Below, in pieces: positions 1,351-61,799 of a stretch of 64,000 nt of DNA. The position numbers and the translations under genes were made by a program. The number at the start of each line of letters is the position of its first letter. Within the stretch, counting starts at the first letter, position 1. The DNA lies in the IMG/VR virus record IMGVR_UViG_3300028800_000006, positions 38,928 to 102,927 of that record; one strand, 5' to 3'. Source of the stretch: a virus. Under the pieces are notes generated by a model that did no database searches, was not told where the DNA came from, and saw only the letters and a list, made by a program, of their open reading frames with translations.

Positions 1351-1796
1351 TCACCCGTCAGCTCGGCGCCGGCTACGCGATCGTCCCCGTCCCGCCCGTG
1401 CCCGACTGGAACACGAGCGCTGGCGGCGGCCCCATCAGCCGGTCGTCGCAATCGTCTGTGCCAGCCGGCGCCGGCAACTACGTGTGGCGCAGCCCGCTCA
1501 ACGTCGTGCGCGAGGCGGAGCCCGGCGCGGGCTGGTGGCAGGATCTCGCGGCCACGAAGATGTTCCTGCCCGACGGCCGGCTCGTGGACGCGAAGCCGTT
1601 TGCCTACGACCAGTTCCGCGGCGGCCCGGACATCATCCAGCCGATCGTGACTCAGTCGTCTCGCCTGCTCTCGCCGTCGTTCGTGGCGATGTGCCTGGGC
1701 GCAGCCGCCGGGTACAAGCTGTCTCGCGACAATCACGTGCTGCACGCGGTCGGCGGCGCGATCGTCGGAGGCTTGCTCGGGCGCGTGTTCGGGTGA
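1347..1796 (+). CDS. Membrane protein with two C-terminal Gly-rich hydrophobic segments
   Basis: N-terminal RQLGAGY; C-terminal AVGGAIVGGLLGRVFG. Confidence 0.65.
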   Translation: MITRQLGAGYAIVPVPPVPDWNTSAGGGPISRSSQSSVPAGAGNYVWRSPLNVVREAEPGAGWWQDLAATKMFLPDGRLVDAKPFAYDQFRGGPDIIQPIVTQSSRLLSPSFVAMCLGAAAGYKLSRDNHVLHAVGGAIVGGLLGRVFG

Positions 1797-2140
1797 GCGC
1801 CGTGGCGGAGATTGTCACGGTCGTGTGTGACACCAAGGACGGACGTGCTACACGTGTCGAGCGGCGCATGCGCGACGTGCTTGGCGACGAGGGAATCGAC
1901 TGGATTCTTGGATCGCACGATCCGAAAAGTACAGACGCTACGGCGCTCCTCGCAGCTAACGCGCTGGCCCGTGACCGGCTGGTTGGCGAAGGCTTTACGG
2001 GAGCTACTGGCGCCGCTCTCCCGTTTTTGCCCGGACGGCCATACACCGCAGAGAGCGCAAGCACGAGATGCTGCGCCTGCGAAAGGTTGATGCCCGTGTC
2101 AGCCGGTGAGCACGTCACGGAGCCTGCCCATGCCACTTGA
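1793..2140 (+). CDS. EGxxW-motif paralog family member
   Basis: GTG start overlaps upstream TGA; contains DEGIDWILGSHDPKSTDATALLAANAL. Confidence 0.7.
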   Translation: MSAVAEIVTVVCDTKDGRATRVERRMRDVLGDEGIDWILGSHDPKSTDATALLAANALARDRLVGEGFTGATGAALPFLPGRPYTAESASTRCCACERLMPVSAGEHVTEPAHAT

Positions 2141-2912
2141 TGCAAACGAAAAAGCGCTGATCATGAAGCGCCGAGCCGCTGCAGGCTGGGACGCGCCTAG
2201 CGGCGTTCCCGATGGCCGCTACCGTGTCGGCCCTGGGGGCAAGCTCAGGCGGGTGAACCTCGGTGTGGCAGATCAAGCACAGGATCTGCTCGCGAACATG
2301 CGCGTGAACTGGCAGGCACGCGGTGTGCTTGGGATCATCGCTGACAAGATCCATCAAGGGTATGCGGTCGCCGAGACGTTCCCGTGGTCAGCTTCATCCC
2401 ACCTATGGCAGTCGCTTCCAGATGTTGTGCGAGGTGTCCAGACACCGAAAGAGGCGGCGATTGATCTGCTGAATCAAGCGAACACCTACGCGCAGAAGAT
2501 CTACGCGACGATTCCAAACGACAGCGCGCCTGTGTCAGCGCAGACACGCCGGACTGTCACAATTGCCGTGAAAAACGCGACGAAGGCGGTGAAGCTCGTT
2601 TCCAGCGCGGCTAACGATCTGAACGCGAGCATGCTGCGCGAGATCCTGGAATATCTGGCGCAGAAAACGAAAGAGGCGGCCGATTACCTCGCGAACAAGG
2701 CGAAGGACAAGTTCGGCTTCGACATCCCAAAGCCGATCATCTACGCGACACTGGCGTTGCTGGGTGTCACGACGCTGTTTATCGCCGCCAAGCTCGTGCA
2801 CACTGTGGTGCTGGGCCGGGCAAGGCTGGCTGAGGCGGAGGAAGAGGCGATCCAGATCGCAGACTCTTCTCGGCGCAAGAAGGCTTCGCGGAAGGTCGCC
2901 ACGATTTCGTAG
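2130..2912 (+). CDS. Helical protein with C-proximal transmembrane segment
   Basis: RRVNLGVAD motif; TM segment IIYATLALLGVTTLFIAA; basic tail. Confidence 0.65.
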   Translation: MPLDANEKALIMKRRAAAGWDAPSGVPDGRYRVGPGGKLRRVNLGVADQAQDLLANMRVNWQARGVLGIIADKIHQGYAVAETFPWSASSHLWQSLPDVVRGVQTPKEAAIDLLNQANTYAQKIYATIPNDSAPVSAQTRRTVTIAVKNATKAVKLVSSAANDLNASMLREILEYLAQKTKEAADYLANKAKDKFGFDIPKPIIYATLALLGVTTLFIAAKLVHTVVLGRARLAEAEEEAIQIADSSRRKKASRKVATIS

Positions 2913-2920
2913 GAGATCAC

Positions 2921-3334
2921 ATGGTTTCAGTCACCAACACGAATCTAGGCTTCTCGATCACTTCGGCGATCAAGAGCGTCGGCAAGACCGCGATCAAGGC
3001 GCAGGGGGCTGTGTTCAAGGCGACTGGTGTGGCCTCGAAGATCCCGGGCGTGTCTCAGGGAGCGAACGCGATCGTGCCAGGCTCCGGACGGATCCTCTCG
3101 GCCGGCGGCCAGCTCGACTCGATCGTGGGCGACAAGCTCTTGAGTGTGGGGAGCGGCAGCGGGGGCACGACGACAGCGACTGCTGTTGATCCTGGAACGG
3201 GCGGCGATCCTGGTGTGCCAGCGCAGCCGGGGAAGCGCGGCGGCTCGAAGCAGCTCATCAAGGGTGTGCCGAACACGACGTTGGCCATCGCAGGCGGCGG
3301 GCTCCTGGTGCTGCTTCTCGTGCTGAAGCGGTAG
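2921..3334 (+). CDS. LG|F family C-terminally anchored membrane protein
   Basis: AGGAG RBS; NLGFSITSAIKSVGK; ends LLVLLLVLKR. Confidence 0.75.
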   Translation: MVSVTNTNLGFSITSAIKSVGKTAIKAQGAVFKATGVASKIPGVSQGANAIVPGSGRILSAGGQLDSIVGDKLLSVGSGSGGTTTATAVDPGTGGDPGVPAQPGKRGGSKQLIKGVPNTTLAIAGGGLLVLLLVLKR

Positions 3335-3373
3335 GGGTTTGCTGCCAGACGACTGGCGTTCTACACTCGTGGA

Positions 3374-3547
3374 ATGACCGGACAGCCGAAATCGAACGCA
3401 GGAACCATCGCGGCCGTGATCGGCGGCCTCGCGGCCGTAGGCGGGCTCGTCGCCGCGGGTGTGGCTTCGTCGAGGAAGCCGGCGCCGCGCCTGGGCGGAG
3501 TGCGGCGGCCGGGGCTCGTTAAGAAGCCGTGCGGGTGTGGGCGGTGA
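3374..3547 (+). CDS. Small membrane/basic protein (57 aa, not in ORF track)
   Basis: MTGQPKSNAGTIAAVIGGLAAVGGLVAAGVASSRKPAPRLGGVRRPGLVKKPCGCGR; TACACT -10 box just upstream. Confidence 0.6.
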   Translation: MTGQPKSNAGTIAAVIGGLAAVGGLVAAGVASSRKPAPRLGGVRRPGLVKKPCGCGR

Positions 3548-60099: not shown

Positions 60100-60338
60100 C
60101 GAAAACGCTGAATAGAGGCGATCTGATAACTCGACTTGTCGGTAACGACCGCATCGAGCATGGACGCGTCGCCGGTGTATGGTTCAGTCAACTAGGCTTC
60201 GAGTACATTCCATCTATGGTCGGGATCAGGATAAACCAAGAAGGGATAACGTGGATCCGCGGGCATCACGCTGACGACTCTCCAGAGGTTCTCGCGCTTC
60301 ACACCGCCTACCTCCTCACCCGGGGGGTGGTGGGGTGA
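60096..60338 (+). CDS. EGxxW-motif paralog family member
   Basis: LNRGDLIT...NQEGITWIRGHHADDSPEVLALHTAYLL. Confidence 0.75.
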   Translation: MTKTLNRGDLITRLVGNDRIEHGRVAGVWFSQLGFEYIPSMVGIRINQEGITWIRGHHADDSPEVLALHTAYLLTRGVVG

Positions 60339-60571
60339 GCCCGCCTCCGCAAGCTACGGGCCCCATTGTCGTGACGGTTGTCGTGGCTACAACCGTAGCG
60401 GCTGCATACTCTCCTCGCGGAGCCGTGCTCGCTCACCACGTCGGCATGAAATACGACCCACGCTATGAGGGCATTTCGTGGATACACGGCGCGCATACTG
60501 AAGACAGCCAAGAAGGGCAAGCGCTACTGGCTGCGTACTTCCTGAGCAACGGTGAACGGGTCACAAGGTGA
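60335..60571 (+). CDS. EGxxW-motif paralog family member
   Basis: RYEGISWIHGAHTEDSQEGQALLAAYFL. Confidence 0.75.
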   Translation: MSPPPQATGPIVVTVVVATTVAAAYSPRGAVLAHHVGMKYDPRYEGISWIHGAHTEDSQEGQALLAAYFLSNGERVTR

Positions 60572-60819
60572 ACGTCGGAGATCCTGTAACGGTCGTGCAC
60601 CACGACCACACCATCCGTCCTTCAACCGTTGCGTTCGTCGAAGCAGACCGATCCAGCTTTATGGTGGAAGACGATGCACCACTGGTCGAACTGTATGATG
60701 CCCACCGCGAAGGCATCACCTGGATTTCAGGACACCACGAAACAAACTCGCCAGAGATCCGATCTCTTGCCGCAGCGTACCTACTCGCCGAATTGCCTGC
60801 CGGTGACAGCTCGGCGTAA
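60568..60819 (+). CDS. EGxxW-motif paralog family member
   Basis: MNVGDPVTVV...HREGITWISGHHETNSPEIRSLAAAYLL. Confidence 0.75.
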   Translation: MNVGDPVTVVHHDHTIRPSTVAFVEADRSSFMVEDDAPLVELYDAHREGITWISGHHETNSPEIRSLAAAYLLAELPAGDSSA

Positions 60820-60829
60820 AACCTTCTCC

Positions 60830-61556
60830 ATGACCAAACCTGACCACTTCGGCGCCATTGTCCTCGCCATCATCAGCGCGACCATCTGCATCTTTGCGTC
60901 TGGCGCGTTGAGCTGGAAAGGCCGCGTGGCGCTCGTGCTCCTCACCCTTTTCACGATCTTCGTGTGGGTGCAGCCCGAGGCAACTGGCGCCGTCATCCTG
61001 CGCTTCCGCTTCGCCACTGAACGCTGGCTCAAATCATTGAGGTGACCCCATGCACGCTGTAGTCGCTCTGCTCGCACTCCTGGCCGCTGAACCAGTGCCG
61101 TTCTTCAAGGGCGACCGCGTTCAGCTTCCTGTCGACCCGCACCAGCACGTCGTGTACGGGCCCGAGCTGCCTGATCCAATCGCCACGGAGTGCGGCGTCC
61201 GCGACAAGGCGTGTCTGGCCGAGCACGACTTTCGTGTGGTCACACTCGCAGCTGCCCAGCACGATCCGAACTGGTGCGACCAGGCGGTGGACTCGTTCGA
61301 GTGCCGGGACATCTACGCCATGATCGTTGGCGACAGCGGCCGGATGGATCCGATGCTCACCGACCCCTGCACGTACGTCGTGCGCACCGATCACGGAGTG
61401 GCCGTGCTGTACTCGAAGCCGAAGGCCCGGTGGATGGTGTCGGCGAACTGGGGATGGCACGCACCCCAGTTCATTGGGGTGTGCAAGGACCCGGGCATGC
61501 TGCCTGCGGTGGGCGTGCAGACGTTGCCGGCGTTCCCGTGGGTCACGAAGAAGTGA
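60830..61556 (+). other. Two genes: two-TM protein (60830-61045) and secreted Cys-rich protein (61050-61556)
   Basis: Hydrophobic segments; signal peptide; GAGG RBS. Confidence 0.6.
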
Positions 61557-61799
61557 GCGCCGAGGTCAAGCTTGACCTCGGCGCTCCTGTGACGCTGCTG
61601 TACATCATCGGCGGTAATGAGCTACGGTACAAGCACGGATACGTCCTCGCACTCAACCCGGAAGGTTTCGTTGCACGCGTAACGGCGATCGACGTCACCT
61701 ACGAGAGCCGCGAGTATGGAACGTGGTGGATCCACGGCCACCACGACGCCGACGAATGAAATGGATGCGCTGCTAGCCGCGAACGCGCTGGTGCGCTAG
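61553..61799 (+). pseudogene. Frameshifted EGxxW-motif family member
   Basis: EYGTWWIHGHHDADE* (stop 61759); the +1 frame continues NEMDALLAANALVR* to 61799. Confidence 0.65.

Follow-up and report, generated by a model that had tools for sequence, protein, structure and literature searches.

Many diverged copies of one small predicted barrel in the genome of an uncultured soil virus

Why should a virus carry a dozen short genes, scattered over both strands and among unrelated operons, whose products seem to have little in common beyond a motif near their C-ends? The question is raised by a stretch of 64,000 nucleotides ("the window"; 64% G+C) that comprises bases 38928-102927 of the complete, 102,927-bp IMG/VR record IMGVR_UViG_3300028800_000006. 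The source is an uncultured soil virus, labelled G000 below. The initial annotation of this DNA listed twelve open reading frames (ORFs) bearing the motif, called their N-terminal parts variable, and offered two explanations: a modular adaptor, in which a constant docking motif is joined to diversified target-binding surfaces, or a small self-spreading coding element. The analysis described here treats the twelve as one family of paralogs and the "motif" as part of a single predicted domain; what that domain is for can be proposed with much less assurance, and a repertoire of binding proteins is the proposal preferred here. (Coordinates are those of the window unless marked "genome"; those of individual features are collected in Table 1.)

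One family and one predicted domain

The significance of the motif relative to shuffled controls had been set beforehand as one of two refuting tests. The strict pattern [ED]G..W[ILVM].G.H is matched ten times in the six-frame translation of the window, each time at a listed ORF, and never in 200 dinucleotide-preserving shuffles of the same DNA (the maximum is 0); a loose pattern is matched 17 times, against a shuffle mean of 2.3. A family profile built from the twelve ORFs (alignment A1) recovers every one of them from the six-frame translation of the genome at E = 5e-13 to 1.6e-30, and the gene-caller products on record for these ORFs agree with the starts used here. All twelve exist, and they form one paralog family, as had been claimed; the shuffled controls do not refute it. 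The list was not complete: the window also holds a fusion protein of 602 amino acids (aa), and elsewhere in the genome, on the minus strand at genome 2618-4660, an array of five to seven copies represents a subtype with GW and a shorter loop in place of GHH..DS.E. By the iterated profile G000 has 17 copies (two related genomes have 17 and 8); a stub, the fusion and weak matches bring its total to ~20.

The arrangement is also as first described. Tandem arrays and singletons lie on both strands, and adjoining genes are coupled by 4-nt overlaps of start and stop codons (ATGA, GTGA, TTGA) at 1793, 12779-12782, 13835-13838, 16373, 16630, 16908, 60335 and 60568. Each of the metagenome loci with context carries 4-14 copies in tandem. 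The twelve genes take up 3.4 kb, ~5% of the window.

The predicted structure changes the meaning of the motif. AlphaFold2, run on the 12-row alignment with the 78-aa member 5 (the ORF at 15617) as its target, returned a model with a predicted local distance difference test (pLDDT) score of 93.8 and a predicted template-modelling (pTM) score of 0.82; its strands are residues 9-14, 17-26, 30-35, 42-46 and 54-56, and its helix is residues 64-77. According to this model, the family protein folds into a Tudor/SH3/KOW-like barrel of five strands, which a C-terminal helix closes. The motif provides a turn (E50-G51), the last strand (W54-I55-R56), the exit from that strand (G57-H58-H59), the start of the helix (S63-P-E65) and the helix itself (A68-L-L-A-A-x-A-L75); the last strand (EGxxWIRG) pairs with the first (GDxVT), and the N-capped helix (S-P-E..ALLAAxAL) lies over the barrel.

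The conserved positions of 150 sequences are G7, D8, V10, T11, E50, G51, W54, I55, R56, G57, H58, H59, S63, E65, A68, L69, A71, A72 and L75. Conservation of the first strand (G7 in 110 of 133 sequences, D8 in 101 of 133, T11 in 136 of 137) thus matches that of EGxxWIRGHH..S.E..ALLAAxAL. The N-terminus is not simply variable, as had been stated, G7, D8, V10 and T11 being nearly invariant; the KOW/SH3-like start that had been noticed in the same proteins is supported. What varies is strands 2-4 and the loops, which differ in sequence, length and charge: positions 14-49 are near-random in sequence and variable in length.

One domain or two modules? Judged by the model, the variable N-terminus and the constant motif make up one domain of ~75 aa (stand-alone proteins have ~75-90 aa) rather than two modules. 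A profile of the helix by itself has 28 matches in G000 and its relatives G001 and G002, all of them in family barrels save one at E = 0.7. Since the helix is never seen without a barrel in these three genomes, it appears not to be a portable tag. A modular adaptor with a separable docking motif is therefore the wrong picture: the motif supplies the final strand and the closing helix of one barrel, whose first strand is equally conserved; it belongs to the fold itself, as its seam and helix.

The barrel is of a familiar kind. Tudor, SH3, KOW and PWWP domains (6l0x, PHF20L1; 5vc8, NSD2 PWWP1; 1g5v, SMN; 4l5g, CarD; 5dma and 7egs, UvrD/PcrA; 1m1g, NusG) have in common with it a five-stranded, strongly bent barrel of ~55-60 residues and a first strand of the (V/I)GDxV type; PWWP, chromo-barrel and some ribosomal KOW proteins also resemble the family in the helix that comes after the barrel. 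VIA-align (48,161 chains) places Tudor, MBT, PWWP, chromo, CarD, UvrD Tudor and NusG KOW at Z 5.3-7.0, a range that may reflect merely a common arrangement; the overlaps with Tudor, PWWP and KOW domains extend over 48-71 residues at a root-mean-square deviation of 1.4-2.7 Å. The best Foldseek E is 0.025 in PDB and 0.008 in BFVD, the matches including KOW-type ribosomal proteins, KapB, PWWP and unnamed phage mini-proteins, and the nearest clusters in the ESM Atlas are unnamed viral proteins with a score of 0.88, which is under that tool's trust level. The difference lies in the sequence: no sequence match joins these domains to the family (Z <= 7.0, Foldseek E >= 0.008), and by Pfam and PDB searches the EGxxWIRGHH..S.E..ALLAAxAL signature does not occur in them. 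A four-residue aromatic cage of the Tudor type, the reader of methylated Lys or Arg, is unlikely, because W54 is the only invariant aromatic residue of the family.

The motif had been reported as unrecognised, and searches of Pfam, NCBIfam, PHROGs, PADLOC and PDB assign it to no characterised family. Pfam (ten window members and 86 relatives, E <= 0.01) returns one stray DUF6966 and nothing else; scans of the members against NCBIfam and PHROGs return no match, nor do the PADLOC models of anti-phage defence (eight members, the leader protein of the main array and an 87-aa protein encoded inside it, E <= 0.1), and the family profile finds nothing below E = 0.5 among PDB sequences. As for characterised anti-defence inhibitors (Acr, Tad, Acb, Ocr and the like), PHROGs yields none and BFVD only generic small barrels (E >= 0.008); no dedicated inhibitor library was searched.

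Descent, turnover and distribution

G000 has two relatives in IMG/VR, G001 (121.5 kb, 88% complete) and G002 (94.5 kb, with terminal repeats); further relatives are found in Joint Genome Institute (JGI) metagenomes as contigs of 108-150 kb and many fragments. G000, G001 and G002 are syntenic, with core proteins 50-75% identical. The number of family copies per virus is 8 to ~20, in arrays at partly syntenic sites and as singletons, and both number and membership vary between relatives: the main array has at least 8 copies in G001, against 4-5 in G000 and 3-4 in G002. A comparison of syntenic sites, which the initial annotation had proposed, was run, and occupancy differs: the site of member 1 is occupied in G002 and empty in G001, and member 2 sits within a ~1.25-kb stretch that lacks a G002 counterpart.

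The copies are old. Their tree (72 copies) is a star with a median end branch of 0.81 changes per column, and 50 of its 69 inner branches are unsupported. Orthologs are recognisable only among close relatives (L005/L006/L007/L008; L010/G001), and there is some clustering by genome (7 changes for G000, shuffled mean 11.2). In ten ortholog pairs the ratio of nonsynonymous to synonymous substitution (dN/dS) is 0.15-0.6, with dS ~0.6-1.6, and is usually, not always, higher in the variable part of the protein; by this measure each copy is a maintained gene under purifying selection. Between window paralogs the longest common DNA word is 12 nt and the same codon is used at only 38% of identical residues, synonymous sites being randomised. 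These figures argue that there has been no recent duplication and no gene conversion among the copies, and that they do not constitute a repeated DNA element. Taken together, the absence of DNA identity and the dN/dS values therefore indicate old genes under selection rather than a spreading element; with no nuclease or recombinase motif in sight either, the data speak against the "small self-spreading coding element".

At E <= 1e-3 an exhaustive profile search of 1.84 billion representatives returned 534 clusters, and at E <= 1e-10 it returned 42. Of the best 150 matches among the 534 clusters nearly all are 70-130 aa long; the ten clusters that were looked up are all unnamed, and nine of these are singletons from metagenome assemblies. 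A word-indexed protein search picked up three outside proteins and no more. No longer fused form was found beyond G000's own 602-aa protein, and tblastn of 50,697 records of cultured phages detected no family copy. As far as these searches could see, the family is limited to a clade of uncultured 95-150-kb double-stranded DNA viruses and to unnamed metagenomic fragments.

There are general precedents. T4-like phages encode early proteins with a predicted LSm-like fold, GoF, MotB.1 and Frd.2 (Kim et al. 2025, PMC12152347), which resemble the family in being small, in having no assigned function, in their predicted small β-barrel, and in occurring as several very diverged paralogs per genome. 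T4 has three such copies, in contrast to the 8-20 found here, its barrel is N-terminal and followed by other elements, and PHROGs provides no sequence relation; within the T4 trio, an effect has been measured only for mutant GoF, on RNA stability (PMC12152347). Bacillus phage G has ~35 copies of a Zn-ribbon, a lineage-specific expansion of a small domain (Iyer et al. 2021, PMC7824862). Again one tiny domain has multiplied in a large phage and its function is only guessed, but the fold and the virus group are different and the expansion is that of a single phage, whereas here it is clade-wide, with turnover. The literature offered such general precedents and no described equivalent: the family is uncatalogued, while expanded or paralogous small domains in large phages are already known (PMC7824862, PMC12152347).

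A side observation concerns codons. E50 is encoded by GAA in 34 of 62 copies (genome 21%), I55 by ATT in 27 of 47 (long genes of the virus: 12% of Ile codons) and R56 by CGT in 20 of 48 (genome 10%); examples of this rare-codon motif are at 15764-15787, 16768-16791 and 60240-60263. G+C at third codon positions (GC3) averages 0.68 in the family versus ~0.81 in other genes, a set pre-selected at GC3 >= 0.72. Rare codons at invariant positions could mark a pause in translation ahead of the last strand, a nucleotide-level constraint, or ancestry. The virus's own tRNA-Ile has anticodon AAT, to be set against ATT, a codon that is scarce in the long genes yet the commoner choice at the conserved Ile55.

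Members, leader gene, fusion and surroundings

Four features are newly recognised here: the 602-aa barrel fusion, the frameshift in the copy at 61553-61799, the leader gene of 147 aa, which is conserved, and a palindrome that serves several operons as a putative operator.

Table 1. Positions of family members and of other features in the window and, where marked, elsewhere in the genome
Feature	Position	Strand	Profile E	Remarks
Member 1, 115 aa	1793-2140	+	5e-17	GTGA-coupled to upstream 149-aa gene; long C-terminal extension containing Cys
Member 2, 82 aa	3947-4195	+	2.5e-19	Singleton without GDxVT first strand
Palindrome	4773-4788			Before GT4 gene
Member 3, 107 aa	12459-12782	-	3.7e-17	GHL in place of GHH; C-terminal extension
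Member 4, 163-167 aa	13835-14338	-	6e-19	Match over residues ~115-165; ~100-aa helical N-terminal extension, then barrel and helix
Leader gene of main array, 147 aa	15023-15466	+		Internally duplicated strand-helix-helix pattern
Stub, 49 aa	15463-15612	+	7	HDGLLWL; not significant
Member 5, 78 aa	15617-15853	+	2e-23	Protein used for the AlphaFold2 model
Palindrome, CGCTAGTTAACTGGCA	15848-15863			Operator-like; inside main array; overlaps member 5 stop; 12 nt before 87-aa gene
87-aa acidic gene	15875-16138	+		Non-family; inside main array
Member 6, 77 aa	16143-16376	+	3e-23
Member 7, 86 aa	16373-16633	+	3e-23	ATGA-coupled to member 6
Member 8, 93 aa	16630-16911	+	1.6e-30	TTGA-coupled to member 7
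Palindrome	19871-19886			Before minus-strand operon (start 19861; contains methyltransferase gene)
Collagen-triple-helix-repeat protein	22955-25453	-
Collagen-triple-helix-repeat protein	25578-28634	-
602-aa protein	29435-31243	+		Residues ~9-72 a diverged family barrel; closing helix absent
Collagen-triple-helix-repeat protein	33420-37115	-
262-aa protein	38001-38789	-		83-86% identical in G000, G001 and G002
tRNA-Ile, anticodon AAT	42630-42705	+		ARAGORN; Rfam tRNA 46.5 bits
Transglutaminase-core protein	47068-48555	-		Intein splicing domain inside; both Pfam matches weak, the intein below its curated cut-off
MoxR-type AAA ATPase with DUF2201 metallopeptidase-vWA partner	53803-56231	-		Adjoining genes; ATPase kept in G000, G001 and G002
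Member 9, 80 aa	60096-60338	+	3e-27
Member 10, 78 aa	60335-60571	+	2e-23	GTGA-coupled
Member 11, 83 aa	60568-60819	+	1.6e-26	GTGA-coupled
Member 12, frameshifted	61553-61799	+		Barrel read to stop at 61757-61759; helix in +1 frame to 61799
Palindrome	genome 4676			Outside window; before upstream array
Packaging-ATPase candidate	genome 6410-8134			Outside window (L017:6410-8131)
Palindrome	genome 37542			Outside window; before virion-like block

Some of the twelve entries needed amendment. The minus-strand ORF at 12459 is a member, as listed; its start was corrected to 12782, which is ATGA-coupled and gives the 107 aa of the table, and the same 107-aa translation is on record as P0006 in a public protein collection. 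The copy at 61553 also belongs to the family, and is frameshifted rather than a short variant: the sequence before the stop reads ...WIHGHHDADE, and the helix, NEMDALLAANALVR followed by a stop, is in the +1 frame. HH-D-A-D, one damaged codon and N-E-M-D-ALLAANAL restore the family spacing exactly, and for this reason an indel within codon 63 seems the simplest account. A programmed +1 frameshift was rejected as the simplest reading. The 68-aa product of the frameshifted gene is on record from four contigs, one of them of 102,791 bp.

The single copy noted for a different N-terminal extension is indeed there (member 4); the extension has no Pfam match. The "degenerate copy" at 15463-15612 lacks support from the profile and is supported by its position, which is that of a full G002 copy (79437-79664); it is possibly a decayed copy. 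The 87-aa gene of the main array is not of the family and matches no other known family, and has orthologs within the arrays of G002, G001 and L015. Member 8 is ATGA-coupled to the next gene, a GT4 glycosyltransferase (Pfam). Outside these genomes, a 131-aa protein from a JGI metagenome of another sample (P0003) contains two family modules head-to-tail, the first without most of its helix.

The leader gene has homologs directly upstream of the arrays of G001, G002, L010, L006, L007, L008 and L009. Its two repeats end in RxLIRxGLG (alignment A5); we infer only that its product may be ribbon-helix-helix-like. The 16-bp palindrome TGCYAGTTAACTRGCA occurs five times in the G000 genome, just upstream of operon starts; the 87-aa gene that follows the copy at 15848-15863 leads the second half of the main array. 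G002 has related palindromic sites at syntenic places; G001 has none.

The barrel of the 602-aa protein is recognised by comparison with the family profile (hhalign probability 86%, E = 5e-6) and with an array member of G002 (BLASTP, 43% identity, E = 2e-16), and has lost both the conserved GHH and the helix. It is followed by ~520 aa without a recognised fold, and the gene is located among the collagen-repeat fibre genes. A protein of a relative, P0159, is a stand-alone homolog of the C-terminal part; since it encodes that part alone, the barrel appears to have been grafted onto a larger protein. AlphaFold gave no usable model of the 602-aa protein (pLDDT 26.5, from only 3 sequences), and searches with its C-terminal part found nothing in the ESM Atlas, PHROGs or cultured phages.

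What kind of virus is this? The record has a terminal repeat of 127 bp, which suggests that the assembly is circular or circularly permuted. The genes that can be recognised encode a family-A DNA polymerase fused to a UDG domain, SNF2 and Dda-like helicases, a primase and a PD-(D/E)XK nuclease; others encode an SLT transglycosylase, a GH25 muramidase, thioredoxin, a tyrosine integrase, GT4 glycosyltransferases and a methyltransferase. The sole candidate for a packaging ATPase matches the PHROGs "terminase large subunit" family at E = 3e-14 and, weakly, the HerA/DUF87 and TrwB models; PHROGs recognised none of the candidate structural proteins tested. The three large collagen-repeat proteins (best Pfam Collagen E = 6e-69) may be fibres that are glycosylated, as in giant viruses, since their genes adjoin several glycosyltransferases and methyltransferases. 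The 262-aa protein, the most conserved of the clade, has no match in Pfam or PHROGs and no relative in reference bacterial genomes; a motif scan of 185,579 reference genomes, in search of the host, likewise came upon no family copy.

What might the copies do?

The account that we favour, without giving it quite even weight, is that the family is a repertoire of accessory binding proteins built on a fixed scaffold. The conserved seam and helix would maintain the fold and may offer one common contact, while the variable face of each copy would recognise a different host or viral target; host takeover and counter-defence would be the likeliest roles. The barrel would also lend itself to grafting onto a larger protein, the 602-aa fusion being an example, and TGCYAGTTAACTRGCA may be an operator read by the leader protein, in that case a regulator made of tandem ribbon-helix-helix units. 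Diversified binding surfaces on a constant scaffold are compatible with the variation of strands 2-4 and the loops, and the set would be under common regulation and would turn over from one relative to another. One can go further and imagine a natural library of mini-binders: 8 to ~20 Tudor-like copies would direct strands 2-4 at different host targets and hold the invariant seam (T11, E50, R56, H58, H59) and helix for one shared viral or host partner, the whole module being switched, together with glycosyltransferase operons, by the dedicated tandem regulator acting at the palindrome. In all its detail this version is a speculation that we think unlikely to hold.

Several considerations weigh against a binder repertoire. 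1) The idea is drawn solely from the pattern of conservation. 2) The invariant polar residues T11, E50, R56, H58, H59 and E65 could form a ligand or metal site instead of a scaffold. 3) One copy coupled inside a virion-like block, and a barrel fused among fibre genes, point towards a structural role. 4) Pairwise dN/dS never exceeds 1 in the ten ortholog pairs, and positive selection is thus not seen, at dS values that are near saturation. 5) The leader protein has no Pfam match at E <= 5 and no PDB match below E = 0.5 to identify it as a ribbon-helix-helix protein.

The third of these points leads to the alternative that the copies are structural or assembly proteins: a barrel for virion anchoring or decoration, minor capsid, membrane or fibre-associated proteins, or assembly adaptors. 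Here the neighbourhood speaks. The 149-aa gene to which member 1 is coupled is β-rich and lies in a block with the SLT transglycosylase and membrane proteins, at a site kept in G002; a family barrel is fused to the 602-aa protein in the midst of fibre genes; one copy of the palindrome precedes the virion-like block, and others precede glycosyltransferase operons; and the clade conserves the MoxR and vWA-metallopeptidase pair, which has been proposed as a chaperone and protease of virion assembly in jumbo phages (PMC7824862). Yet it would be rare for a structural protein to have 8-20 copies whose number and identity change from one close relative to the next, most copies are in arrays away from structural genes (beside the integrase-proximal variable region or glycosyltransferases), and the fusion dispenses with the very GHH and helix that the family conserves. 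On this balance a structural role is unlikely, though less so than the alternatives that follow.

Might the barrels bind nucleic acid instead? As regulators of the Sm/LSm, KOW or bacterial Tudor-like kind each would act on particular RNAs or promoters, adjusting stability, translation or transcription, or would dock on RNA polymerase like the Tudor-like domains of CarD, Mfd and UvrD. The fold matches do include the NusG/Spt5 KOW, CarD, and the RNA polymerase-binding C-terminal Tudor of UvrD/PcrA, and mRNA level is affected by the early proteins of T4 for which an LSm-like barrel is predicted (PMC12152347). The fold scores (Z <= 7) are in the range of a common arrangement, though, and no sequence match to KOW, Tudor or LSm models goes with them; the majority of members are acidic or neutral, with no conservation of charge. 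Net charge is spread from -5 to +4 (10th to 90th percentile; median -2) and the median isoelectric point (pI) is 6.1; neither a general nucleic-acid binder nor a DNA mimic is therefore favoured. We regard this role as rather improbable.

A site for a small molecule or metal, in a sponge or chaperone-like protein, would make W54, R56, H58, H59, E50, D8 and T11 a common pocket, perhaps at an oligomer interface. For so small a protein the invariant set is unusually polar, and includes a His-His pair and a Trp. Against this alternative, a sponge would not require 8-20 diverged paralogs per genome, the subtype of the upstream array and many relatives have W and a variable residue for HH with a shorter loop, and S63-P-E is presumably an ordinary helix N-cap; its chances are slim. 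A selfish self-spreading mini-gene or recombining cassette, suggested by singletons wedged between unrelated operons on both strands and by sites at which presence or absence differs among related genomes, is barely credible for copies so diverged in DNA, maintained by purifying selection in their orthologs, without flanking repeats, and not encountered in reference bacterial genomes (motif scan) or cultured phages.

A repertoire of binding proteins thus remains our first choice, and the reasons for caring about the family do not all depend on it. The family is characteristic of a little-explored group of 95-150-kb viruses, which metagenome assemblies alone have revealed, and a family model would annotate many orphan genes, for at least 534 clusters in public metagenomes have no Pfam, NCBIfam or PHROGs entry. 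Should the copies prove to be target-specific binders on one scaffold, they would serve as ready-made probes for the host processes that large phages attack, and the compact natural scaffold would be of interest to binder engineering. Knowing what one such family does would probably account for a feature that is widespread in phage genomes, of which T4 and phage G offer other instances.

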